The translations under genes were made by a program, and so were the position numbers. A model generated the notes under the pieces. The model ran no database searches. It saw only the letters and a list, made by a program, of their open reading frames with translations, and had not been told where the DNA came from. Below are positions 3,080-46,736 of a stretch of DNA of 64,000 nt, piece by piece; position 1 is the stretch's first letter, and each line of letters starts with the position of its first letter. Source of the DNA: Escherichia coli (GTDB lineage: Bacteria > Pseudomonadota > Gammaproteobacteria > Enterobacterales > Enterobacteriaceae); the NCBI RefSeq assembly GCF_044324785.1, contig NZ_CP172127.1; one strand, 5' to 3'.

Positions 3080-4453
3080 TTACTGGTTTTCAGCCAGCTG
3101 ACGATCGTGGCGGCGCTTAAACATCCAGCCAATCAACAGCACAACAATCCACGCGAAACCGACATACAGCGAGATACGCGTATCAGGGTGATAACCAATC
3201 AACCCGATAATAAAGAGCAGGAAAATCAAACCGCCGATGGTCGTTGCTACCCCACCCGGCACTTTAAATTTCAGCGCCTTAACTTCTTCTGGCGGCAAAC
3301 GGCGACGGAAGGCAATTTGCGACAGCAGGATCATAATCCACACCCACACCGTGGCGAAGGTTGCCAGCGAAGCGATTACCAGGAAGACGTTTTCCGGCAT
3401 GATGTAGTTCAGATACACCGCAAACAATAGCGCGGTAGTCATCACCAGCACCGTAACCCACGGAATACCGCGACGCGACGTTTTGCTGAAAATTTTCGGC
3501 GCGCTGCCCTGCTCTGCCATACCGTGGAGCATACGGCCTACGCCAAATACATCACTGTTAATTGCCGACAGCGAAGCGGTCAGCACAACAAAGTTAAGAA
3601 TGCTGGCGGCAAAGGTAATGCCCATATGCTGGAACGTCAGCACAAACGGGCTACCGGCAGTGCCAACCTGATTCCACGGGTAGATAGACATAATGACGAA
3701 CAGCGTACCAACATAGAACACCAGAATACGCATCGGCACGGAGTTAATCGCACGCGGAATCGATTTCTCAGGATCTTTCGCTTCACCGGCGGTAATCCCG
3801 ATAATTTCGATCCCACCGTAAGCAAACATCACCATTTGCAACGACATCACCATCCCAAGCCAGCCGTTACTGAAGAAGCCGCCGTTGCTCCACAGGTTAT
3901 GAATACCGGTCGGTTGCCCGCCGTTGCCAATCCCCCAGATGATGATGCCGAAACCGGCGACAATCATGATGATGATAGTGGCGACTTTAAAGAACGAGAA
4001 CCAGAATTCCAGCTCACCGAAGACCTTCACGCTCATCAGGTTTACGGCGCAAATGATCAGCACCACGCTCAGTACCCAAATCCAGTGCGGCACCGTCGGG
4101 AACCAGACACCCATATAGATACCAAAAGCGGTCACATCGGCGATGGCGACAATAAGGATTTCAAAGCAGTAGGTCCAGCCGGTAATGTAACCTGCCAGCG
4201 GGCCGAGGTTTTCCTGCGCATAACGGGAAAAAGAGCTGGCGGCCGGGTTATGTACCGACATTTCCCCCAGCGCACGCATAATGATATACGCTGCGATACC
4301 ACCGATAATATAGGCCAACAACACGCTCGGACCAGCCATTTTGATGGCGTCTGCCGAACCGTAAAACAACCCGGTGCCAATTGCTGAACCCAGTGCCATA
4401 AAGCGTATGTGGCGGGTACTTAGCCCACGCTTTAGCTTGTTCTTACTTTCCAT
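3080..4453 (-). CDS. proY: Proline-specific permease (APC family amino-acid transporter)
   Basis: [45 protein letters not shown]... recognised as ProY; multi-pass membrane protein. Confidence 0.93.
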
Positions 4454-4476
4454 CAATTCCTAACCCATCAACACAA

Positions 4477-4507
4477 TAAAAAACCACGGGGCATCGCAGC
4501 CCCGTGG
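4477..4507 (-). terminator. Putative intrinsic terminator after brnQ
   Basis: Perfect hairpin CCACGGGGC-atcgca-GCCCCGTGG at 4484-4507, followed on the minus strand by a U-run (plus-strand A-run 4477-4483). Confidence 0.55.
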
Positions 4508-4528
4508 TTAAAACAAATGTTCAGTGAT

Positions 4529-5848
4529 TTAGTGAGCGCTGGAGGTCACCTGACGACCTGCCGCGCGATCCCAGATAATGGCCAGAACCACCATCACCAC
4601 TGTTGGCATTAACCACGCCAGACCTTGTTCGGCCAGCGGTAAACGCTGCGCCCAGGACGGTAAGATATCGCTGAATGCAGATGCTTTGATCCCGTCGAGA
4701 ATACCAAAAAGCAGGCTGATAAACATCGGCGGAGCAATCACGCGGGACGAATTATGCCACCATGAGCGTGTAAAACTTAATACAACCAGTGCGATACACG
4801 GCGGATAAATGGCGGTCAGCACCGGTACGGAGATCTGAATCAGCTGGCTCAAACCGAGGTTAGAAACCACCATCGAGAAGCCGCCGAGGATAAACACCAG
4901 CGTACGATAAGAGAGCGGTACGTACTGGGCAAAGAATTCTGCACAAGCACAGGTCAGGCCAACTGCCGTGACCAGGCAGGCGATGAAGATTAACGCCGCC
5001 AGCAGGAAGCTACCGCCGCCGCCAAAGGTGTGCTGAACGTAAGCATGCAGAATAGCAGCGCCGTTTGCAGACTGATCGACCAACGACGCGCTGTCTGAAC
5101 CCAGACGGAACAGCGCCAGGTACAGCAGAGTAAGACCAACACCCGCCATCAGGCCAGCCCAGACGGTATAACGGGTCAGCAGACGCGCTTCAGTAACGCC
5201 ACGAGAACGCGCCGCGTTAACAATAACGATACCAAACACCATCGCGCCCAGCGTATCCATGGTCAGATAGCCGTTGACGAAGCCGTTAGAAAACGCAGCG
5301 TTTTGATAAGCCTCAGTCGCCGTGCTGATAGAACCCGCTGGCCAGACAATTGCGGCAACAGACAGGATGACCAGCGCGATAATTTTCAGCGGCGCAAGGA
5401 AGTTGCCCACGGTATCCAGCAGCTTGCCCGGATAGAGCGAAACCAGAATAACGATAGCGAAATAGACCAGGCTGTAGATAAACAGCGGCAGCGCGGAATC
5501 ACCCGTCAGCGGCGCAATCCCCACTTCAAAAGAAACGGTAGCTGTACGCGGCGTAGCGAAAAGCGGCCCCACAGCTAGGTAACAAACCGTTGCCAGCAGC
5601 ACGCCAGCGACTTTACCGATTGGCGTGCTGAGGCTGTCAACACCGCCGCCAACTTTTGCCAGCGCCACTACCGTTAGTACCGGCAGACCAACGGCAGTAA
5701 TGAGGAAGCCGAATGCCGCAGTCCAGACGTGTTCGCCTGCCTGCAAGCCGACCATTGGAGGGAAAATAATGTTACCTGCGCCGACGAACAACGCAAATGT
5801 CATAAAGCCCAGAGCGATGATATCGCGCGATCTTAATTGATGGGTCAT
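4529..5848 (-). CDS. brnQ: Branched-chain amino acid transporter (LIVCS family)
   Basis: 439-aa [45 protein letters not shown]... recognised as BrnQ. Confidence 0.93.
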
Positions 5849-9689: not shown

Positions 9690-12600
9690 AAATTCTCAGC
9701 CTGCGCCTGAAAAACCTGAACTCATTAAAAGGCGAATGGAAGATTGATTTCACCCGCGAGCCGTTCGCCAGCAACGGGCTGTTTGCCATTACCGGCCCAA
9801 CCGGTGCGGGGAAAACCACCCTGCTGGACGCCATTTGTCTGGCGCTGTATCACGAAACTCCGCGCCTCTCTAACGTTTCACAATCGCAAAATGATCTCAT
9901 GACCCGCGATACCGCCGAATGTCTGGCGGAGGTGGAGTTTGAAGTGAAAGGTGAAGCGTATCGCGCGTTCTGGAGCCAGAATCGGGCGCGTAACCAGCCC
10001 GACGGTAATTTGCAGGTGCCACGCGTAGAGCTGGCGCGCTGCGCCGACGGCAAAATTCTCGCCGACAAAGTGAAAGATAAGCTGGAACTGACGGCGACGT
10101 TAACCGGACTGGATTACGGGCGCTTCACCCGTTCGATGCTGCTTTCGCAGGGGCAATTTGCTGCCTTCCTGAATGCCAAACCCAAAGAACGCGCGGAATT
10201 GCTCGAGGAGTTAACCGGCACTGAAATCTACGGACAAATCTCGTCGATGGTGTTTGAGCAGCACAAATCGGCCCGCACTGAGCTGGAGAAGCTGCAAGCG
10301 CAGGCCAGCGGCGTCGCGTTGCTCACGCCGGAACAAGTGCAATCGCTGACAGCGAGTTTGCAGGTACTTACTGACGAAGAAAAACAGTTACTTACCGCGC
10401 AGCAGCAAGAACAACAATCACTAAACTGGTTAACGCGTCTGGACGAATTGCAGCAAGAAGCCAGCCGCCGTCAACAGGCCTTGCAACAGGCGTTAGCCGA
10501 AGAAGAAAAAGCGCAACCTCAACTGGCGGCGCTTAGTCTGGCACAACCGGCACGAAATCTTCGTCCACACTGGGAACGCATCGCAGAACACAGCGCGGCG
10601 CTGGCGCATACTCGCCAGCAGATTAAAGAAGTAAATACTCGCTTACAGAGCACAATGGCGCTTCGGGCGAGCATTCGCCACCACGCGGCGAAGCAGTCTG
10701 CAGAATTACAGCAGCAGCAACAAAGCCTGAATGCCTGGTTACAGGAACACGACCGCTTCCGTCAGTGGAACAACGAACTGGCAGGTTGGCGTGCGCAGTT
10801 CTCCCAACAAACCAGCGATCGCGAGCATCTGCGGCAATGGCAGCAGCAGTTAACCCATGCTGAGCAAAAACTTAATGCGCTTGCGGCGATCACGTTGACG
10901 TTAACCGCCGATGAAGTTGCTACCGCCCTGGCGCAACATGCTGAGCAACGCCCACTGCGTCAGCGCCTGGTCGCGCTGCATGGACAGATTGTTCCCCAAC
11001 AAAAACGCCTGGCGCAATTACAGGTCGCTATCCAGAATGTCACGCAAGAACAGACGCAACGTAACGCCGCACTTAACGAAATGCGCCAGCGTTATAAAGA
11101 AAAAACGCAGCAACTTGCCGATGTGAAAACCATTTGCGAGCAGGAAGCGCGCATCAAAACGCTGGAAGCTCAACGTGCACAGTTACAGGCGGGTCAGCCT
11201 TGTCCACTTTGTGGTTCCACCAGCCACCCGGCGGTCGAGGCGTATCAGGCGCTGGAGCCTGGCGTTAATCAGTCTCGATTACTGGCGCTGGAAAACGAAG
11301 TTAAAAAGCTCGGTGAAGAAGGTGCGACGCTACGTGGGCAACTGGACGCCTTAACAAAGCAACTTCAGCGTGATGAAAACGAAGCGCAAAGCCTCCGACA
11401 AGATGAGCAAGCACTTACTCAACAATGGCAAGCCGTCACGGCCAGCCTCAATATCACCTTGCAGCCACAGGACGATATTCAACCGTGGCTGGATGCACAA
11501 GATGAGCACGAACGCCAGCTGCGGTTACTCAGCCAACGGCATGAATTACAAGGGCAGATTGCCGCGCATAATCAGCAAATTATCCATTATCAACAGCAAA
11601 TTGAACAACGCCAGCAGCAGCTCTTAACGGCATTGGCGGGTTATGCACTGACATTGCCACAGGAAGATGAAGAAGAGAGCTGGTTGGCGACACGTCAGCA
11701 AGAAGCGCAGAGCTGGCAGCAACGCCAGAACGAATTAACCGCGCTGCAAAACCGTATTCAGCAGCTGACGCCGATTCTGGAAACGTTGCCGCAAAGTGAT
11801 GATCTCCCGCACAGCGAAGAAACTGTGGCGCTGGAAAACTGGCGGCAGGTTCATGAACAATGTCTCGCATTACACAGCCAGCAGCAGACGTTACAGCAAC
11901 AGGACGTTCTGGCGGCGCAAAGTCTGCAAAAAGCCCAGGCGCAGTTTGACACCGCGCTACAGGCCAGCGTCTTTGACGATCAGCAGGCGTTCCTTGCGGC
12001 GCTAATGGATGAACAAACACTAACGCAGCTGGAACAGCTCAAGCAGAATCTGGAAAACCAGCGCCGTCAGGCGCAAACGCTGGTCACTCAGACAGCAGAA
12101 GCGCTGGCACAGCATCAGCAACACCGACCTGGCGGGTTGGCTCTCACTGTGACGGGGGAGCAGATTCAGCAAGAGTTAGCGCAAACTCACCAAAAGTTGC
12201 GTGAAAACACCACCAGTCAGGGCGAGATTCGCCAGCAGCTGAAGCAGGATGCAGATAACCGTCAGCAACAACAAACCTTACTGCAGCAAATTGCTCAAAT
12301 GACGCAGCAGGTTGAGGACTGGGGATATCTGAATTCGCTAATAGGTTCCAAAGAGGGCGATAAATTCCGCAAATTTGCCCAAGGACTGACGCTGGATAAT
12401 TTAGTCCATCTCGCTAATCAGCAACTTACCCGGCTGCACGGGCGCTATCTGTTACAGCGCAAAGCCAGCGAGGCTCTGGAAGTCGAGGTTGTTGATACCT
12501 GGCAGGCAGATGCGGTACGCGATACTCGTACCCTTTCCGGTGGCGAGAGTTTCCTCGTCAGTCTGGCGCTGGCACTGGCGCTTTCAGATCTGGTCAGCCA

Positions 12601-12829
12601 TAAAACGCGTATTGACTCGCTGTTCCTTGATGAAGGTTTTGGCACGCTGGATAGCGAAACGCTGGATACCGCCCTTGATGCGCTGGATGCCCTGAACGCC
12701 AGCGGCAAAACCATCGGTGTGATTAGCCACGTTGAAGCGATGAAAGAGCGTATTCCAGTGCAGATCAAAGTGAAAAAGATCAACGGCCTGGGCTACAGCA
12801 AACTGGAAAGTACGTTTGCAGTGAAATAA
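9686..12829 (+). CDS. sbcC: Nuclease SbcCD subunit C (Rad50-like SMC ATPase)
   Basis: 1047-aa ORF with Walker A (GPTGAGKTT), long Q/L-rich coiled coil, central CPLC zinc-hook motif and a C-terminal LSGGE signature. Confidence 0.95.
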
Positions 12830-12954
12830 CTATTCAGCAGGATAATGAATACAGAGGGGCGAATTATCTCTTGGCCTCGCTGGCCGTTATCCTGCAAGCT
12901 ATCACTTTATTGGCTACGGTGATTGGTAGCCGTTCTGGTGGTTGTGATGGTGGT

Positions 12955-14139
12955 ATGAAAAAAGTCATTTTATCTTTGGCTCTGGGCACGTTTGGTTTGG
13001 GGATGGCAGAATTTGGCATTATGGGCGTGCTCACGGAGCTGGCGCATAACGTAGGAATTTCGATTCCTGCTGCCGGGCATATGATCTCGTATTATGCGCT
13101 GGGAGTGGTGGTCGGTGCGCCAATCATCGCCCTCTTTTCCAGCCGCTACTCACTCAAACATATCTTGTTGTTTCTGGTGGCGTTGTGCGTCATTGGCAAC
13201 GCCATGTTCACGCTCTCTTCGTCTTACCTGATGCTCGCCATTGGTCGGCTGGTTTCCGGCTTTCCGCATGGTGCATTTTTTGGCGTCGGCGCGATCGTGT
13301 TATCGAAAATTATCAAACCCGGCAAAGTCACCGCCGCCGTGGCGGGGATGGTTTCCGGGATGACAGTCGCCAATTTGCTGGGCATTCCGCTGGGAACGTA
13401 TTTAAGTCAGGAATTTAGCTGGCGTTACACCTTTTTATTGATTGCTGTTTTTAATATTGCGGTGATGGCATCGGTCTATTTTTGGGTGCCGGATATTCGC
13501 GACGAGGCGAAAGGAAAGCTACGCGAACAATTTCACTTTTTGCGCAGCCCGGCCCCGTGGTTAATTTTCGCCGCCACCATGTTTGGCAACGCAGGTGTGT
13601 TTGCCTGGTTCAGCTACGTAAAGCCATACATGATGTTTATTTCCGGTTTTTCGGAAACGGCGATGACCTTTATTATGATGTTAGTTGGGCTAGGGATGGT
13701 GCTGGGGAATGTGTTAAGTGGCCGGATTTCAGGACGTTATTCACCACTGCGCATTGCGGCAGTAACTGACTTTATTATTGTGCTGACACTGCTGATGCTC
13801 TTTTTCTTCGGCGGCATGAAAACAACGTCGCTTATTTTTGCATTTATTTGTTGCGCGGGATTATTTGCCCTTTCAGCACCACTGCAAATATTGTTACTGC
13901 AAAATGCCAAAGGCGGAGAGTTATTAGGTGCCGCTGGTGGGCAAATAGCGTTTAACCTCGGTAGCGCCGTCGGCGCATATTGCGGAGGTATGATGCTGAC
14001 GCTGGGGCTGGCATATAATTACGTGGCGCTGCCTGCCGCCCTGCTTTCGTTTGCTGCGATGTCATCGTTGCTGCTGTATGGTCGCTATAAGCGCCAGCAA
14101 GCGGCGGATAGTCCGGTGCTGGCGAAACCACTGGGGTAG
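12955..14139 (+). CDS. araJ: MFS transporter AraJ
   Basis: MKKVILSLALGTFGLGMAEFGIMGVLTELAHNVG... recognised as AraJ; the track ORF extends 28 codons further upstream, the internal Met gives 394 aa. Confidence 0.9.
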   Translation: MKKVILSLALGTFGLGMAEFGIMGVLTELAHNVGISIPAAGHMISYYALGVVVGAPIIALFSSRYSLKHILLFLVALCVIGNAMFTLSSSYLMLAIGRLVSGFPHGAFFGVGAIVLSKIIKPGKVTAAVAGMVSGMTVANLLGIPLGTYLSQEFSWRYTFLLIAVFNIAVMASVYFWVPDIRDEAKGKLREQFHFLRSPAPWLIFAATMFGNAGVFAWFSYVKPYMMFISGFSETAMTFIMMLVGLGMVLGNVLSGRISGRYSPLRIAAVTDFIIVLTLLMLFFFGGMKTTSLIFAFICCAGLFALSAPLQILLLQNAKGGELLGAAGGQIAFNLGSAVGAYCGGMMLTLGLAYNYVALPAALLSFAAMSSLLLYGRYKRQQAADSPVLAKPLG

Positions 14140-41491: not shown

Positions 41492-42454
41492 TTATTGCAC
41501 GAAGCGCGAGGTAACGTACTGGCTGTAATCGTTCGCTACAGCCGGGACTTTGCCCTGCTCTTTCAAAAACTGCGCGGTGTCGATGATCGCTTTGTTCACC
41601 GGTCCGATCAGTTCTGCCGTTTGCTGCTGCGGCGTCAGATAGGTATTCCCCTTCACCAGCCCCGGAACGTCACCTTCAGGCACGCCGCTTAACCGCGCCA
41701 GTTTGCTGATGTTTTCAGGCTGTTTCAGCCACGCGTCTGGGTTAGCAATGTACGGTTGCTGAGCATCGATGGCGCTTTTGGCGAACGCTTTCACGACCTC
41801 TGGATGTTTCTCGGCAAAATCTTTGCGCACCACCCAGACGTCCAGTGTCGGCGCGCCCCACAGCCCGACCTGTTCAGAATCGGTCAGCACCTTGCCGTCT
41901 TTTTCCAGGGCGTTAACCGCCGGTGCCCAGACATAAGCACCATCAATGTCTCCCCGTTGCCATGCGGCGATAATCGCGGGTGGCTGCAGGTTCACTATCT
42001 CCACTTGTCCGGGTTTTATACCCCAGTGTTTCAGCGCCGCCAGCAGGCTGTAGTGGGTGGTGGAGATAAACGGTACGGCGATGCGTTTGCCAATCAGATC
42101 TTCCGGTTTGCTGATAGTTTTCTTTACCACCAGCGCTTCGGAGTTACCCAGTTTTGACGCCAGCAAGAAGACTTCAATCGGCACCTGTTGGCTGGCTGCA
42201 ACCGCTAATGGGCTGGAACCGAGGTTGCCGATTTGCACGTCGCCTGAAGCCAGCGCCCGCACGATGCTGGCTCCGCTGTCAAACTTACGCCAGTCAACGC
42301 TCGCCCCACTCTCTTTAGCAAAGGTGTTATCAGCCTGAGCCACTTTCGCCGGTTCAGCGGAGGTTTGATAGGCCACGGTGACGTTCACCGCCTGTGCCTG
42401 AAAAGCGATGAATGCCAGTGCGGCAAGAAGTGTGTTACGCGATGAAATTGCCAT
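41492..42454 (-). CDS. tauA: Taurine ABC transporter periplasmic binding protein
   Basis: MAISSRNTLLAALAFIAFQAQAVNVTVAYQTSAEPAKVAQ... recognised as TauA; internal Met chosen to give 320 aa. Confidence 0.92.
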   Translation of the reverse strand: MAISSRNTLLAALAFIAFQAQAVNVTVAYQTSAEPAKVAQADNTFAKESGASVDWRKFDSGASIVRALASGDVQIGNLGSSPLAVAASQQVPIEVFLLASKLGNSEALVVKKTISKPEDLIGKRIAVPFISTTHYSLLAALKHWGIKPGQVEIVNLQPPAIIAAWQRGDIDGAYVWAPAVNALEKDGKVLTDSEQVGLWGAPTLDVWVVRKDFAEKHPEVVKAFAKSAIDAQQPYIANPDAWLKQPENISKLARLSGVPEGDVPGLVKGNTYLTPQQQTAELIGPVNKAIIDTAQFLKEQGKVPAVANDYSQYVTSRFVQ

Positions 42455-43060
42455 GATTGTCTGCTCCCCTGTCTTGTTATAGGAGCAGTATTCAGGAATA
42501 AAAACATTCATTAAAAGAATTAGTCGTTATCGCACAGATGATTTTATTCTTAGCAAAAAAGCGGCAAAGGAAAGATTAAATATGCAATTACACCCACTCT
42601 GACAATTCAGTAAGTTACTGCACTTCATTTTATTAATGCATAAACAAGCAGATTATAATGTCTTTTATTTTATTAACAGCAATACATATAATGAAACCAT
42701 CATATTCACATCGCATATATAACTGTGTCATTCTCAATCAACCACATAATATATTCACATCATGTATATAATCCATATTTGCGCATAGAACATATTTTTA
42801 AATGTAATTAATTGACAAACTAAATCACATCTAAATACAATATATAAAACAAAATAACTATACAAACCAAACACACAAACACTTAACATATGAACTACAT
42901 AAAAGATTACGCAGTCGTATCCACGTACCTGAAAGCCCCTTATTTTTCAGCTATCAGTAATTTTTAACACTTAAATATTAGCATCTATCTGCGCCAGAGA
43001 TTACGTCTCTGCGGGCATCGTTGTGCTTGTAGTATAATAAATAAAATGGAGTGTCATTAA

Positions 43061-43732
43061 GTGGATAAGGTTTTAGATTCAGCCATCCTTTCTTCAGCAA
43101 ATAAAAGAAAGGGTATCCTTGCTATTGGCGCACATCCTGACGATATAGAATTGGGCTGTGGCGCGTCGCTCGCTCGTCTTGCAAAAAAAGGGTTCTATAT
43201 TGCAGCGGTAGTGATGACATCGGGTAATTCCGGCGTGAGTGAAATAATTAATCGACATCAGGAATCACTCGAAGCATTAAACATTTTGGGGTGTCAACAA
43301 ACTATTCATTTTAATTTTGCTGACACCCGTACTCATTTACAACTTAATGATATGATTTCCGCTCTGGAAGATGTCCTTAAAAAACAAATTCCGTCTGATG
43401 TAGAAATCATTCGTGTATACACCATGCATGATGCTGACCGCCATCAGGATCATCTTGCAGTCTATCAAGCCTCAATGGTTGCCTGTCGCGCTATTCCGCA
43501 AATTCTCGGCTATGAAACGCCAAGTACCTGGCTTTCATTTATGCCACAGGTTTTTGAATCCGTGGAAGAGGAATATTTCACCATTAAACTGGCTGCATTA
43601 AAACAGCATAAGAGCCAGGGCCATCGTGATTATATGCGCCCGGATCGCCTGCGTGCAGTTGCACAATTTCGCGGGCAACAGGTCAATAGCGATCTGGGTG
43701 AAGGCTTTGTAATTCATAAAATGATTCTTTGA
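43061..43732 (+). CDS. yaiS: PIG-L/LmbE-family N-acetylglucosaminyl deacetylase-like protein
   Basis: ORF from GTG at 43061 with GGAG 9 nt upstream; AHPDDIELGCGA motif typical of the PIG-L/LmbE deacetylase fold; recognised as YaiS-like. Exact start is uncertain. Confidence 0.8.
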   Translation: MDKVLDSAILSSANKRKGILAIGAHPDDIELGCGASLARLAKKGFYIAAVVMTSGNSGVSEIINRHQESLEALNILGCQQTIHFNFADTRTHLQLNDMISALEDVLKKQIPSDVEIIRVYTMHDADRHQDHLAVYQASMVACRAIPQILGYETPSTWLSFMPQVFESVEEEYFTIKLAALKQHKSQGHRDYMRPDRLRAVAQFRGQQVNSDLGEGFVIHKMIL

Positions 43733-43741
43733 GCAAATTGC

Positions 43742-44938
43742 ATGAAAACCTGGATATTTATCTGTATGTCCATAGCAATGTTGCTATGGTTTTTAAGTAC
43801 GCTAAAACGTAAACCCAGTCAAAAGAAAGGCTGTATTGACGCCATTATACCTGCGTATAACGAAGGCCCGTGTCTGGCACAGTCACTGGATAATCTGCTG
43901 CGTAACCCTTATTTTTGCCGGGTAATTTGCGTAAACGACGGCTCCACGGACAATACCGAATCGGTCATGGAGGAAGTCAAACGCAAATGGGGCGACCGCT
44001 TTGTTGCCGTCACGCAAAAAAATACCGGTAAAGGTGGTGCGCTGATGAATGGCCTCAATTACGCCACCTGCGACCAGGTTTTTTTAAGTGATGCCGACAC
44101 CTATGTTCCGCCCGATCAAGACGGAATGGGCTATATGCTGGCAGAAATTGAGCGCGGTGCCGATGCCGTAGGCGGCATTCCCTCTACTGCGTTGAAAGGC
44201 GCGGGTCTGTTACCACACATCCGCGCGACCGTAAAGTTGCCGATGATTGTTATGAAGCGCACGCTACAGCAGCTCGTGGGCGGCGCACCGTTTATTATCA
44301 GCGGTGCCTGCGGGATGTTCCGTACTGATGTATTGCGTAAGTTCGGTTTCTCGGATCGTACTAAAGTCGAAGACCTTGATCTCACCTGGACATTGGTGGC
44401 AAACGGCTACCGTATTCGGCAGGCGAATCGCTGCATCGTATACCCGCAGGAATGCAACAGCCCGCGTGAGGAGTGGCGTCGCTGGCGGCGTTGGATTGTG
44501 GGCTACGCGGTCTGTATGCGCCTGCATAAAAGACTTTTATTTAGCCGCTTCGGTATCTTCAGTATATTTCCTATGCTGTTGGTTGTGCTTTATGGCGTTG
44601 GGATTTATCTCACTACCTGGTTTAATGAATTCATCACCACCGGGCCGCATGGTGTGGTGTTGGCAATGTTTCCGCTTATCTGGGTCGGCGTAGTTTGTGT
44701 TATTGGTGCTTTTAGCGCCTGGTTTCATCGTTGCTGGTTGTTGGTGCCTTTAGCGCCGCTTTCCGTTGTGTATGTATTATTAGCTTATGCCATCTGGATT
44801 ATTTATGGACTTATTGCCTTTTTTACTGGACGCGAACCTCAGCGCGACAAACCCACCCGCTATTCCGCACTGGTGGAAGCGTCAACCGCTTATTCCCAAC
44901 CTTCTGCTACAGGAACTGAAAAACTATCTGAAGCTTAA
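43742..44938 (+). CDS. yaiP: Family 2 glycosyltransferase with C-terminal transmembrane segments
   Basis: 398-aa ORF; GT2-like N-terminal domain (AIIPAYNEG, VICVNDGSTDNT, LSDADT) followed by hydrophobic helices; recognised as YaiP-like. Confidence 0.85.
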   Translation: MKTWIFICMSIAMLLWFLSTLKRKPSQKKGCIDAIIPAYNEGPCLAQSLDNLLRNPYFCRVICVNDGSTDNTESVMEEVKRKWGDRFVAVTQKNTGKGGALMNGLNYATCDQVFLSDADTYVPPDQDGMGYMLAEIERGADAVGGIPSTALKGAGLLPHIRATVKLPMIVMKRTLQQLVGGAPFIISGACGMFRTDVLRKFGFSDRTKVEDLDLTWTLVANGYRIRQANRCIVYPQECNSPREEWRRWRRWIVGYAVCMRLHKRLLFSRFGIFSIFPMLLVVLYGVGIYLTTWFNEFITTGPHGVVLAMFPLIWVGVVCVIGAFSAWFHRCWLLVPLAPLSVVYVLLAYAIWIIYGLIAFFTGREPQRDKPTRYSALVEASTAYSQPSATGTEKLSEA

Positions 44939-45497
44939 TGTTAAAGAGAAAAACATTCAGATTGCAGACCAGGTAATTATTGATGAAACTGCAGGTGAAG
45001 TTGTTATCGGCGCGAATACCCGTATTTGTCATGGTGCCGTTATTCAGGGTCCGGTAGTGATTGGCGCAAACTGCCTGATAGGTAATTATGCGTTTATTCG
45101 TCCTGACACAATAATCAGCAATGGCGTAAAAATTGGTTTTGCCACCGAAATTAAAAATGCGGTTATTGAAGCGGAATCAACGATTGGTCCGCAATGTTTT
45201 ATTGCTGACTCGGTAGTTGCAAACCAGGCATATTTGGGCGCACAAGTACGTACCAGTAATCATCGTCTGGATGAACAGCCTGTGTCTGTTCGAACTCCAG
45301 AGGGAATTATCGCTACCGGATGCGATAAATTAGGTTGTTATATCGGGCAGCATTCACGCCTTGGCGTACAAGTTATTATTTTGCCCGGGCGAATTATTTC
45401 CCCGAACACGCAACTTGGCCCACGCGTGATTGTAGAACGTAATTTACCTCCCGGAACTTATTCACTCCGACAAGAACTTATCCGTACAGGAGATTAA
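44787..45497 (+). CDS. yaiX: Hexapeptide-repeat (left-handed beta-helix) acyltransferase, apparently intact
   Basis: 236-aa ORF with repeated [LIV]-G-x-x-x-x hexapeptides (VIGANTRICHGAVIQGPVVIGANCLIGNYAFIRPDT...). The only in-frame ATG starts (44787, 44805) lie inside the 3' end of yaiP, so the true start is uncertain. Confidence 0.7.
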   Translation: MPSGLFMDLLPFLLDANLSATNPPAIPHWWKRQPLIPNLLLQELKNYLKLNVKEKNIQIADQVIIDETAGEVVIGANTRICHGAVIQGPVVIGANCLIGNYAFIRPDTIISNGVKIGFATEIKNAVIEAESTIGPQCFIADSVVANQAYLGAQVRTSNHRLDEQPVSVRTPEGIIATGCDKLGCYIGQHSRLGVQVIILPGRIISPNTQLGPRVIVERNLPPGTYSLRQELIRTGD

Positions 45498-45498
45498 A

Positions 45499-46272
45499 AT
45501 GATAAAACGGACGTTATTAGCGGCGGTCATTTTTAGCGCATTGCCCGCTTATGCCGGGTTAACTTCCATTACCGCGGGCTACGATTTCACCGATTATTCT
45601 GGCGATCATGGCAACCGTAATTTAGCGTATGCTGAACTGGTGGCGAAAGTTGAAAACGCAACGCTGCTTTTTAATCTTTCCCAGGGGCGTCGTGATTATG
45701 AAACTGAACATTTCAATGCCACTCGCGGTCAGGGTGCGGTCTGGTATAAATGGAATAACTGGCTGACAACCCGAACGGGTATTGCCTTTGCGGATAATAC
45801 GCCGGTCTTTGCCCGCCAGGATTTTCGTCAGGATATTAACCTGGCACTGTTGCCAAAAACGCTTTTCACGACCGGTTATCGCTACACGAAATATTACGAT
45901 GATGTCGAAGTCGATGCCTGGCAAGGCGGCGTATCACTCTATACTGGCCCGGTGATCACCAGCTATCGCTATACCCATTATGACTCCAGCGATGCAGGTG
46001 GTAGTTACAGCAATATGATTTCCGTGCGTCTGAATGACCCCCGCGGCACTGGTTATACTCAACTATGGCTAAGCCGCGGCACAGGTGCTTACACCTATGA
46101 CTGGACGCCAGAAACACGCTACGGCAGCATGAAGAGCGTCAGTTTGCAACGTATTCAACCGCTGACTGAGCAACTTAATCTCGGGCTGACGGCAGGTAAA
46201 GTGTGGTACGACACCCCAACCGATGATTATAACGGTCTGCAACTTGCAGCCCATCTGACCTGGAAATTCTGA
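45499..46272 (+). CDS. yaiO: Outer-membrane beta-barrel protein YaiO
   Basis: 257-aa ORF MIKRTLLAAVIFSALPAYAGLTSITAGYDFTDYSGDHGNRNLAYAEL... with signal peptide and C-terminal Phe; recognised as YaiO. Confidence 0.9.
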   Translation: MIKRTLLAAVIFSALPAYAGLTSITAGYDFTDYSGDHGNRNLAYAELVAKVENATLLFNLSQGRRDYETEHFNATRGQGAVWYKWNNWLTTRTGIAFADNTPVFARQDFRQDINLALLPKTLFTTGYRYTKYYDDVEVDAWQGGVSLYTGPVITSYRYTHYDSSDAGGSYSNMISVRLNDPRGTGYTQLWLSRGTGAYTYDWTPETRYGSMKSVSLQRIQPLTEQLNLGLTAGKVWYDTPTDDYNGLQLAAHLTWKF

Positions 46273-46384
46273 TTCCTTCTGCCGCCCGCTATCCGGGGCG
46301 GCCTTCCCTGCCGATTAGCCCCACCACCTTTCCTCTTTGTTTTCCGACCACATTCACCGGATAAATTTTATTCTCCAGTGTTAT

Positions 46385-46435
46385 ATACTATAGGGGGGTA
46401 TGCATTGACATATAGAATACCCCCCCTATAGTATA
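46385..46435. promoter_or_regulatory. frmRAB promoter-operator: inverted repeat with G6/C7 tracts flanking a TTGACA -35-like hexamer (FrmR operator)
   Basis: ATACTATAGGGGGGTAT (46385-46401) and ATACCCCCCCTATAGTAT (46417-46434) are near-perfect inverted repeats separated by gcattgacatataga, 26 bp upstream of the frmR start. Confidence 0.75.
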
Positions 46436-46460
46436 TTGCATGCAGATGATGAGGTGCGAA

Positions 46461-46736
46461 ATGCCCAGTACTCCGGAAGAGAAGAAAAAGGTCCTTACTC
46501 GAGTTCGTCGTATTCGGGGGCAGATTGATGCTCTGGAACGGTCGCTGGAGGGTGATGCCGAATGCCGTGCCATACTCCAACAGATCGCTGCCGTTCGGGG
46601 CGCGGCTAACGGGCTGATGGCAGAAGTGCTTGAAAGCCATATCCGGGAAACGTTTGACCGAAATGACTGCTACAGCCGCGAAGTCAGCCAATCCGTTGAC
46701 GACACTATTGAACTGGTTCGTGCCTATCTTAAATAG
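46461..46736 (+). CDS. frmR: Formaldehyde-responsive repressor FrmR (CsoR/RcnR family)
   Basis: [65 protein letters not shown]... recognised as FrmR (91 aa). Confidence 0.93.

Follow-up and report, generated by a model that had tools for sequence, protein, structure and literature searches.

Gene layout and the AT-rich upstream spacer

The window, by which we mean the whole stretch of Escherichia coli DNA that was analysed (64,000 nucleotides), contains at positions 43061-46272 four intact, co-oriented plus-strand ORFs of the ORF list, yaiS, yaiP, yaiX and yaiO. These genes are preceded by an AT-rich spacer that separates yaiS from tauA. The features are as follows.

42512..43060, no strand assigned: tauA-yaiS spacer with divergent promoters, presumed to be an H-NS-bound silencing region; 549 bp, 29.7% GC
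42812..42841, + strand: sigma-70 promoter-like site for yaiS, TTGACA-18-TACAAT; 11 of 12 consensus positions
43061..43732, + strand: yaiS, 223 aa, GTG start, with GGAG about 9 nt upstream
43742..44938, + strand: yaiP, 398 aa, ATG start
44805..45497, + strand: yaiX, 230 aa counted from the conserved ATG (start codons compared across homologues)
45499..46272, + strand: yaiO, 257 aa, ATG start, with a signal peptide

The packing is operon-like. The yaiS stop and the yaiP ATG are 9 nt apart, the 3' end of yaiP is overlapped by yaiX over 134-152 nt, and a single nucleotide lies between the yaiX stop and the yaiO ATG, so that these ORFs and junctions bear out the sequence-only reading of four closely spaced, intact genes. 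The Shine-Dalgarno sequence of yaiO (AGGAG) is located within yaiX. No recognisable Shine-Dalgarno sequence was found for yaiX in the window, in agreement with a recent report (PMC13058169). Alternative starts of yaiX are provided by the longest ORF, from 44787 (236 aa, the form used in PMC13058169), and by the RefSeq annotation, from 44916. Promoter-like and terminator-like sites inside the operon did not exceed in number what is expected by chance.

The spacer has the lowest GC content among 1270 sliding 549-bp windows of the 64 kb (whole-window mean 51.1%, sd 5.7%), in full accordance with the earlier description of about 550 bp of very AT-rich DNA ahead of the locus. The promoter-like site at 42812..42841 implies a yaiS 5' UTR of approximately 210 nt. 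Across the region such sites are not enriched (6 seen vs 9.1 expected in shuffles), and support for this promoter therefore rests on its published match, a yaiS 'constitutive promoter' from genomic SELEX with the same hexamers at the same spacing (PMC3946193). The same work located an H-NS site and RpoD promoters in the K-12 tauA-yaiS spacer (PMC3946193), of which the H-NS site supports the proposal of a silenced operon with H-NS acting upstream.

Protein families and predicted folds

Profile matches agree with the families that had been proposed for the four products, namely a PIG-L/LmbE-type enzyme, a membrane GT2 glycosyltransferase, a hexapeptide-repeat protein and an outer-membrane beta-barrel.

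YaiS matches the Pfam PIG-L family (PF02585, E = 9e-23) and contains the (A/V)HPDD and HxxH motifs of PIG-L/LmbE zinc deacetylases; its two metal motifs, AHPDD (residues 24-28) and HQDH, do not vary among six cassette homologues. Among solved structures, diacetylchitobiose deacetylase (1e-10) and BshB1 are the nearest relatives, while the scores against the BshB1, BshB2, MshB and Mca equivalog models all fall far under the cut-offs. Neither a signal peptide nor a transmembrane segment could be read from the sequences of YaiS and YaiX. YaiS is thus predicted to be a cytoplasmic PIG-L/LmbE-family zinc deacetylase.

The top NCBIfam match of YaiP is PgaC_IcaA (TIGR03937, E = 3.7e-29), although its 101.9 bits are below the equivalog cut-off of 422.3 bits and YaiP is not a member of that family. 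Pfam families PF00535, PF13641 and PF13632 are found on proteins 97% identical to YaiP. The AlphaFold2 model (pLDDT 85.8) contains one N-terminal and three C-terminal transmembrane helices, the latter preceded by a helix spanning residues 241-261. Foldseek returned hyaluronan synthases (TMq 0.61-0.67) and BcsA (0.59) as best matches with full-length superposition, whereas GtrB, ArnC and DPMS were matched over the GT domain alone (TMq 0.33-0.39; 0.33-0.37 for GtrB and ArnC). Residues D66, D117xD119, E210-D211 and R247-W-R-R-W251 followed by xxG are invariant in the family, and YaiP has the layout of processive, channel-forming GT2 enzymes: a GT-A domain with D, DxD and ED motifs, an interface helix and a transmembrane bundle. 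At the Q(Q/R)xRW motif, placed here by position and not by residue-level structural alignment, R and W are kept and Q is replaced by R. As modelled, YaiP matches channel-forming synthases, not polyprenyl-phosphate transferases.

YaiX, which was still termed uncharacterised in the literature up to 2026 (PMC13058169), in line with the earlier remark that the product of the locus is uncharacterised, matches Hexapep (PF00132, E = 3e-9) and other left-handed beta-helix (LbH) Pfam families, non-catalytic ones among them. Among solved structures it is closest to the C-terminal domain of Sulfolobus ST0452, a GlcN-1-P N-acetyltransferase domain (E = 2e-24), and it has the left-handed beta-helix of GlmU-type N-acetyltransferases, pointing to a cytoplasmic LbH protein. 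In the ungapped HMMER alignment, ST0452 H308, the catalytic His corresponding to E. coli GlmU H363, falls on the Pro of IGPQCF, and the catalytic His is accordingly absent from YaiX. The Gly-Pro of this motif is kept in 9/9 homologues, and the residue corresponding to Asn331 (RTSNHRLD) is conserved. Given the Pro in place of the catalytic His and the non-catalytic LbH matches, YaiX may not be an acyltransferase; of the previous assignment as a hexapeptide-repeat acyltransferase, the hexapeptide fold stands.

YaiO belongs to TIGR04390 (PF19413), scoring 184.3 bits against a curated NCBIfam cut-off of 32 with residues 22-257 covering the full profile (1-230 of 230), and its outer-membrane location has been reported in the literature. 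AlphaFold2 predicts a 14-strand barrel (pLDDT 93.7) with very short loops and no TPR domain, which is closer to CymA and OmpG than to PgaA. None of the four proteins matched a family in the PADLOC anti-phage defence models.

Distribution, selection and intactness of the cassette

The order yaiS-yaiP-yaiX-yaiO recurs in 15 complete loci, and every complete context examined agrees. These are the window, an IncF plasmid, an E. coli island, a Salmonella plasmid-like contig, three Citrobacter loci and those from Superficieibacter, Stenotrophomonas, Acinetobacter, Pseudoxanthomonas and metagenomic contigs or MAGs, thus spanning Enterobacteriaceae, Xanthomonadales, Acinetobacter and metagenomes. The order holds down to 24-35% YaiO identity, at differing chromosomal sites and on plasmids, and YaiP retains at least 60% identity across Gammaproteobacteria versus about 35% for YaiO. 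Short, incomplete contigs of three further YaiO homologues (24-31% identity) have an LbH gene directly upstream of yaiO, and no exception to this linkage was seen in those contigs. The Pseudoxanthomonas cassette is flanked by EAL and GGDEF-EAL genes.

Two monoderm Clostridia carry yaiS, yaiP and yaiX in the same order and lack yaiO. In one of them, Anaerosolibacter, the cassette is directly followed by a gene for a CE4 (NodB-type) deacetylase with an N-terminal membrane anchor, which was found in this locus only among the loci examined. The co-occurrence of the four genes across lineages, plasmids and islands supports their earlier treatment as a unit, and they constitute one functional module that is conserved and horizontally mobile.

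Purifying selection acts on each of the four genes (dN/dS 0.03-0.21). The locus is present in 4970/5426 complete E. coli genomes (~92%). Intactness, which had been put forward as a notable feature of this strain, turned out to be ordinary: in 10/10 sampled E. coli genomes (IS-free, picked from an evenly spaced listing of matches) all four ORFs are full length, and K-12 is the exception. It carries two lesions, a stop codon in yaiS and an IS2 in yaiX; the earlier statement that IS2 interrupts yaiX in K-12 was correct, as its transposase splits the gene in K-12-derived records. IS insertions at several positions of the locus in differing strains indicate that its loss is tolerated.

Proposed role and comparison with known systems

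Our favoured interpretation, held with slightly better than even confidence, is that yaiS-yaiP-yaiX-yaiO is a self-contained mobile operon whose products make and export an amino-sugar glycan for the cell surface, most likely derived from GlcNAc. YaiP, as a membrane-embedded family-2 synthase, would polymerise, on the cytoplasmic side, sugar taken from a nucleotide-sugar donor and thread the product through its own membrane-spanning portion. YaiS and YaiX, both in the cytoplasm, would edit the N-acyl group of the amino sugar ahead of synthesis or in its course, YaiS by stripping the N-acetyl group and YaiX by re-acylating the free amine or, alternatively, by binding and regulating the synthase. 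With a deacetylase and an N-acetyltransferase in one compartment, the two steps would cancel out unless they differed in acyl group or in substrate. YaiO would provide passage across the outer membrane. In E. coli, a single promoter in the AT-rich, H-NS-bound spacer would normally leave the operon nearly silent, and its expression would make cells stick together. We infer the polymeric product, its GlcNAc or GlcN sugar, the order of the enzymatic steps and export rather than import by YaiO.

An exopolysaccharide-like role, as first proposed from the sequence, is supported by the whole-protein fold match of YaiP to hyaluronan synthases and BcsA, by the outer-membrane gene being missing exactly in the two monoderm Clostridia that keep the other three genes, by the secreted-type CE4 polysaccharide deacetylase after a Clostridial cassette, and by YaiP-dependent clumping: according to a meeting abstract as quoted in EcoGene 3.0, K-12 with a repaired yaiX clumps and YaiP is needed for this (PMC3531124). 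Amino-sugar chemistry is suggested by the resemblance of YaiS to GlcNAc-glycoside de-N-acetylases with the metal motifs kept, by that of YaiX to the GlcN-1-P N-acetyltransferase domain and by the CE4 enzyme adjoining the Anaerosolibacter cassette. The lack of a periplasmic scaffold, a TPR domain and a c-di-GMP receptor in the cassette counts against polymer export, as it leaves a polymer no obvious route across the periplasm. The putative Q-to-R change in YaiP, the Pro for His in YaiX and the tolerated IS insertions were also weighed on that side.

A rather unlikely alternative is a glycolipid or small-glycoconjugate pathway, which would start with the transfer of a single GlcNAc by YaiP onto a membrane lipid or small acceptor, continue with N-deacetylation by YaiS and acylation of the free amine by YaiX, and leave to YaiO the movement or display of the hydrophobic product at the outer membrane. 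To our knowledge, every characterised PIG-L pathway follows this logic: GPI (PIG-A, PIG-L, PIG-W), mycothiol (MshA, B, C, D) and bacillithiol (BshA, B, C). The relatives of YaiS, BshB1 and chitobiose deacetylase, are cytoplasmic enzymes acting on small GlcNAc glycosides, the cytoplasmic location of both modifying enzymes fits a small precursor, periplasmic polymer-handling proteins are not encoded in the cassette, and monoderms retain the first three genes without YaiO. However, the YaiP fold, including its transmembrane part, is that of channel-forming polymerases and not of GtrB, ArnC or DPMS (TMq 0.59-0.67 vs 0.33-0.39), its top family match is PgaC/IcaA, a CE4 polysaccharide deacetylase is appended to the Anaerosolibacter cassette, and the clumping described in the quoted abstract is more usual for a polymer. 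A Nod-factor-like product is improbable, namely a short chito-oligosaccharide carrying a terminal N-modification, made by YaiP in the manner of NodC, YaiS in that of NodB (at the non-reducing end) and YaiX in that of NodA, with exit via YaiO. NodC has a topology of 1 + 3 transmembrane helices, the same as YaiP, the nearest solved relative of YaiS deacetylates the non-reducing GlcNAc of chitobiose, and a 14-strand channel of the CymA/OmpG type fits oligosaccharides; but YaiP scores only 29 bits against NodC TIGR04242 (cut-off 550), neither YaiS nor YaiX is related to NodB or NodA or matches a CE4 or NodA family, YaiX has no obvious catalytic base, and an inner-membrane exporter such as NodIJ is not encoded.

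Uptake or salvage of GlcNAc oligosaccharides, with YaiO importing and YaiS deacetylating the imported sugars, would be consistent with the likeness of YaiO to the sugar-import channels CymA and OmpG and of YaiS to the chitobiose deacetylase of an archaeal chitin-catabolic pathway. We regard it as highly improbable, as an inner-membrane transporter, kinase, hydrolase or deaminase was linked in none of the loci examined, the membrane synthase is the most conserved member, Clostridia keep the cassette without the porin, and clumping needs YaiP according to the quoted abstract. That the locus is a functionless remnant in decay, or a chance neighbourhood of four unrelated genes, is strongly disfavoured and has hardly any probability: silence in laboratory conditions, IS insertions at several sites in differing strains, the two K-12 lesions and the missing Shine-Dalgarno sequence of yaiX could be read in that way, but they stand against the low dN/dS of all four genes, the intact ORFs in all sampled genomes, the carriage by 92% of complete E. 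coli genomes and a gene order identical across phyla and mobile elements.

E. coli is the best-studied bacterium, and yaiO is used as a species-specific PCR marker. About 92% of its complete genomes carry the operon, which is under purifying selection. A surface glycan, if real, would shape aggregation and biofilm formation unnoticed, and perhaps also recognition by phages or the immune system; it would have escaped detection in K-12, where two lesions inactivate the locus, and wherever H-NS silences it. In Salmonella, Citrobacter and Acinetobacter baumannii the module is carried by plasmids and islands, and it is also found in Stenotrophomonas; it could therefore be relevant to several pathogens. 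More tentatively, and as a possibility we would not bet on, yaiSPX(O) may represent an unrecognised, phylum-spanning glycan machine, in which a compact channel-type GT2 works with two dedicated cytoplasmic partners, a PIG-L de-N-acetylase and an LbH protein without the usual catalytic His, to build a glycan whose amino sugars receive a non-acetyl N-substituent or free amines before export, to which Gram-negatives add a minimal, scaffold-free 14-strand exit pore, and which would provide E. coli with a further, silent but near-universal adhesin glycan at its surface. Outside Nod factors, GPI anchors and lipid A, such pre-export chemistry is not known to us. Cytoplasmic N-deacetylation and re-acylation combined with such a pore would widen the known designs of polysaccharide secretion.

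The suggested parallel with pgaABCD is valid in logic only, as no protein reaches the Pga cut-offs and the deacetylase is predicted to be cytoplasmic. Like the PNAG systems pgaABCD and icaADBC, the yai locus combines an inner-membrane GT2, a de-N-acetylase and an outer-membrane barrel in a small operon, and shares with them cell aggregation, as far as the quoted abstract goes; unlike them, it has the PIG-L enzyme YaiS in the cytoplasm instead of the periplasmic CE4 enzyme PgaB, no PgaD-like c-di-GMP-dependent partner and an extra LbH protein. YaiP shares with class I hyaluronan synthases and BcsA the GT-A domain, the interface helix with a putative xxxRW motif and the transmembrane bundle, but at 14-18% identity it is smaller, with four transmembrane helices, no PilZ domain and R instead of Q as the first residue of the putative motif. 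The logic of NodABC is likewise similar (a GT2 GlcNAc-oligomer synthase with a cytoplasmic de-N-acetylase and a cytoplasmic N-acyltransferase), whereas homology is limited to the GT2 and distant: NodB is a CE4 and YaiS a PIG-L enzyme, NodA has its own fold and YaiX is an LbH protein, and an outer-membrane barrel takes the place of the NodIJ exporter. The PIG-L pathways (GPI, MshABCD and BshABC) share the sequence of GlcNAc addition, PIG-L deacetylation and amine acylation; they use GT4 or PIG-A transferases for small soluble or lipid products, without the membrane channel-type GT2 and the outer-membrane barrel that are both present in yai. CymA and OmpG, 14-stranded monomeric channels with 7-11% sequence identity to YaiO, import (cyclo)oligosaccharides and are found in catabolic operons, whereas YaiO is always synthase-linked in the loci examined. 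A porin with a periplasmic TPR scaffold and a periplasmic or extracellular polymer-modifying enzyme, as in Pga, Bcs, Alg and Pel, are both absent from the window locus, and PilZ, PgaD, Alg44 and PelD-type c-di-GMP domains were not found in the four proteins with NCBIfam and Pfam, where the Pfam families considered for YaiP and YaiO are those of near-identical proteins. The yai cassette is thus read as a candidate variant of the synthase-dependent glycan systems.

Layout and regulation of the locus

The cassette lies on the E. coli chromosome in the order tauDCBA (minus strand), a 549-bp spacer, yaiS, yaiP, yaiX, yaiO (plus strand) and frmRAB, and its four genes were found as follows:

43061-43732, plus strand: yaiS, intact ORF of 223 aa with a GTG start (PIG-L/LmbE deacetylase)
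43742-44938, plus strand: yaiP, intact ORF of 398 aa (GT2 glycosyltransferase)
start within 44787-44938, end at 45497, plus strand: yaiX, intact ORF (left-handed beta-helix, LbH, hexapeptide-repeat protein)
45499-46272, plus strand: yaiO, intact ORF of 257 aa (outer-membrane barrel)

Neighbouring genes are separated by 9 nt (yaiS/yaiP) and 1 nt (yaiX/yaiO) or overlap (yaiP/yaiX), the AGGAG of yaiO sits within the 3' end of yaiX, and promoter-like and terminator-like sites are no more frequent within the four-gene block than in shuffled sequence. The tauA-yaiS spacer has a GC content of 29.7%, the minimum among all 549-bp windows of the 64 kb (mean 51.1%, sd 5.7%). Genomic SELEX has assigned to yaiS a constitutive RpoD promoter, TTGACA-18-TACAAT, and placed an H-NS site within the yaiS/tauA spacer (PMC3946193); the same promoter sequence is present in the window at 42812-42841. 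The sequence-only reading of four co-oriented, closely spaced intact genes behind AT-rich DNA was thus confirmed in every detail, and the silencing-type upstream region that it proposed is supported by the published H-NS site together with the low GC content. An Rfam scan of 42300-46500 gave no credible RNA family, and PADLOC no defence-system match for the cassette.

A GC-rich hairpin 3' of yaiO (about 46281-46302) was rejected as an intrinsic terminator, being no better than shuffles (z = -1.17) and without a T tract, and no convincing terminator was found before a long G/C-tract palindrome, TATAGGGGGGTAT ... ATACCCCCCCTATA (46380-46434), which begins about 110 nt past the yaiO stop. This palindrome is presumably the FrmR operator and contains the frmR promoter TTGACA-16-TATAGT at 46405-46432. 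The start of yaiX is ambiguous: a conserved ATG ('MDLLPFLLD') at 44805 gives 230 aa, the longest ORF from 44787 gives 236 aa, and RefSeq uses a CTG at 44916. Distant YaiX homologues begin with M-W-W in a 14-nt overlap with the GT2 stop; in Enterobacteriaceae this ATG is replaced by CAC (H-W-W) and the yaiP frame is longer by about 19 codons, the dual-coding yaiP/yaiX overlap amounting to 134-152 nt. A 39-codon ORF on the minus strand (43598-43717), antisense within the 3' end of the intact yaiS, is a homologue of YkiC, a K-12 small protein detected by epitope tagging (PMC6001520), and an antisense RNA inside yaiP has also been mentioned (PMC4666370).

Intact and disrupted alleles in E. coli

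Of 5426 complete E. coli genomes, 4970 have the locus. All four ORFs are full length in each of ten IS-free genomes picked out of an evenly spaced hit listing. Pairwise dN/dS values are 0.03-0.21 for all four genes. K-12 does carry the IS2 within yaiX that the sequence-only reading had named, whereas yaiX of the window is intact. In K-12, codon 186 of yaiS is also an in-frame stop (L094, the K-12-type record NZ_CP043183.1, 1071-1745), where the window has Gln, and the frame beyond it is open up to the end of the 223-aa protein. The stop is therefore a second K-12 operon lesion beside yaiX::IS2, and the annotated 185-aa K-12 YaiS, which is without the conserved C-terminal segment, is a truncation. 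K-12 is the unusual case: an intact operon, as in the window, is what E. coli normally has, and its loss can be tolerated without being widespread.

Independent IS insertions at differing positions were seen in other E. coli lineages (e.g. strain 3908), with IS3 in yaiS, IS1A between yaiX and yaiO, and ISEc20 and IS1 elsewhere, and IS elements seem to strike the locus repeatedly, inactivating it or rewiring its expression. RefSeq/PGAP labels yaiS a pseudogene 'missing C-terminus' in all 11 genomes sampled (L001, L096-L105). Translation of the DNA led us to reject this label, as every one of the 11 genomes checked, K-12 excepted, has the 223-aa ORF intact; the label has the look of an annotation artefact, to which the calling of the small antisense gene ykiC may be linked. 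Compared with other E. coli, the yaiS gene of the window and its upstream spacer (42500-43732) show strong divergence (dS about 0.5, dN about 0.06), dS being about 0.05 for yaiP, yaiX and yaiO (43742-46272), and identity over the locus is at least 99% in only 38 of about 5000 records. The comparison suggests that the 5' end of the window locus is mosaic or recombinant, or that there are two old allele classes.

According to the EcoGene 3.0 account of a 2011 meeting abstract, repair of the K-12 yaiX' 'facilitates clumping during vegetative growth', and this clumping needs YaiP (PMC3531124). A 2026 paper, in which the 71-aa K-12 YaiX fragment was overexpressed, notes the 236-aa form of other strains and still calls YaiX function and substrate unknown (PMC13058169), in agreement with the earlier view that the product is uncharacterised. 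Literature searches on the YaiO family, TIGR04390 and PF19413, and on PIG-L, GT2, hexapeptide and exopolysaccharide combined, returned nothing, and no paper describing the cassette as a family was found in the literature searched.

Distribution of the module

A YaiP-alignment profile scan of genome contigs gave at least nine true orthologous loci, the other matches being unrelated GT2 genes. The order PIG-L, GT2, LbH, YaiO is maintained in every complete context retrieved:

L002, 9691-12891: E. coli IncFIB plasmid pMTY9754, second copy, about 90% identical
L003, 9824-13030: E. coli chromosomal island beside cobUST, second copy, about 90% identical
L007: Salmonella plasmid-like contig, PapB-family regulator just upstream (5208-5498)
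L004: metagenomic contig, MvaT/H-NS-like gene just downstream
Further metagenomic contigs
Three Citrobacter loci, Superficieibacter, Stenotrophomonas maltophilia and two MAGs
Acinetobacter baumannii: adjoining a MobA relaxase
L108: Pseudoxanthomonas sp., EAL and GGDEF-EAL (c-di-GMP turnover) genes on both flanks (3834-4637, 9879-13146)

Even beside YaiO homologues at 24-31% identity, on short, incomplete contigs, the LbH gene is still directly 5'. The co-occurrence extends from Enterobacteriaceae to Pseudoxanthomonas, Acinetobacter and metagenomes, and the four genes are one module. Full-database phmmer placed YaiO relatives in only 118 clusters among 1.84 billion representatives, so the family is rare. 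The regulatory genes beside the cassette vary by host, as in Pseudoxanthomonas, Salmonella and the metagenomic L004. The second copy occupies 31 plasmid places in E. coli as well as the genomic island, and some strains therefore hold two cassettes.

Around the cassette of Citrobacter, Superficieibacter and other loci, neither tauA nor frmRAB turned up within about 7 kb, and the E. coli tauA-frmR site was for this reason rejected as the ancestral position of the family. In the Enterobacteriaceae relatives the cassette lies elsewhere than between tauA and frmR, its GC is below that of the flanks and AT-rich DNA precedes it, which argues that it is mobile as a unit. Two Clostridia, Herbivorax and Anaerosolibacter, carry yaiS-yaiP-yaiX homologues that are 33-44% identical and identically ordered, with YaiO absent; if YaiO carries the product of the other three across the outer membrane, it is precisely YaiO that should be lost where this membrane is absent. 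In Anaerosolibacter carboniphilus a CE4 (NodB-type) gene (L023, 9748-10563) directly follows, 20 nt 3' of the yaiX homologue, and its 271-aa product, which is membrane-anchored at the N terminus and has the NodB/CE4 motifs TFDDG ... NHTVHH, looks like an extracellular polysaccharide deacetylase added to the three-gene core of a monoderm.

Proteins, proposed pathway and known systems

YaiS matches PF02585 (E = 9e-23), retains the metal motifs AHPDD and HQDH and is without a signal peptide; among solved structures it is closest to archaeal diacetylchitobiose deacetylases (1e-10) and BshB1. The top curated family of the GT2 enzyme YaiP is PgaC/IcaA (E = 3.7e-29), yet far under the equivalog cut-off. 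When YaiP was searched against the PDB by sequence and by profile, the matches covered only the first half of GT-A and left the RW motif unaligned to HAS (hyaluronan synthase), BcsA and PgaC, fold search alone being informative. In an AlphaFold2 model built on a 59-sequence alignment (pLDDT 85.8), a single N-terminal transmembrane helix precedes the GT-A domain, which is followed by an interface helix and, at the C terminus, three more transmembrane helices; Foldseek ranked hyaluronan synthases top (TMq 0.61-0.67), with BcsA at 0.59, and the polyprenyl-phosphate transferases GtrB, ArnC and DPMS superpose through the GT domain only (0.33-0.39). For YaiX, the closest similarity is to a domain of Sulfolobus ST0452, its C-terminal GlcN-1-P N-acetyltransferase (E = 2e-24). 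As a conserved Pro replaces the catalytic His308 in the ungapped alignment, YaiX is a plausible but uncertain acyltransferase. YaiO founded the family TIGR04390, in which it scores 184 bits (cut-off 32); it is modelled as a short-looped barrel of 14 strands that has no periplasmic domain (pLDDT 93.7), and a published outer-membrane localisation is cited in PMC4453288.

A compact synthase-dependent glycan system is the best-supported reading, and we hold it to be somewhat probable. YaiP would polymerise and translocate the glycan, YaiS and YaiX would act on an amino-sugar N-acyl group from the cytoplasmic side, YaiO would provide passage through the outer membrane, and H-NS would silence the operon, whose expression would lead to aggregation. 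Four features suggest GlcNAc chemistry: the synthase is PgaC-like, YaiS is a PIG-L enzyme, the LbH protein resembles GlmU, and a CE4 enzyme is appended in Anaerosolibacter.

In the main rival, classical PIG-L logic, with glycosyl transfer and deacetylation followed by N-acylation, would yield a glycolipid or small glycoconjugate; the PIG-L and LbH proteins would suit it, the HAS-like fold of YaiP less so, and we consider it rather unlikely. A Nod-factor-like oligosaccharide, a special case, is improbable. Uptake, to which an outer-membrane barrel might lend itself, is disfavoured beside a synthase-like YaiP and seems very improbable, and a functionless remnant, which the K-12 lesions might suggest and the low dN/dS does not, is the least credible.

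Surprise is limited, since annotation of the genes goes back a long time and the hint of clumping dates from a decade ago; new relative to the literature searched is the comparative evidence, namely the 3 + 1 architecture, the mobility and the conservation across phyla. The proposed parallel to pgaABCD stands in part: the synthase-dependent glycan system would work like Pga, Bcs and HAS, but it belongs to none of them. YaiP scores under the PgaC and NodC equivalog cut-offs, the cassette is without a c-di-GMP receptor and a TPR scaffold, the enzymes that would modify the glycan are cytoplasmic instead of periplasmic, the YaiO barrel differs in strand number, and the QxxRW position is an invariant RWRRW in the YaiP family, a correspondence drawn from position relative to the end of GT-A and the interface helix.
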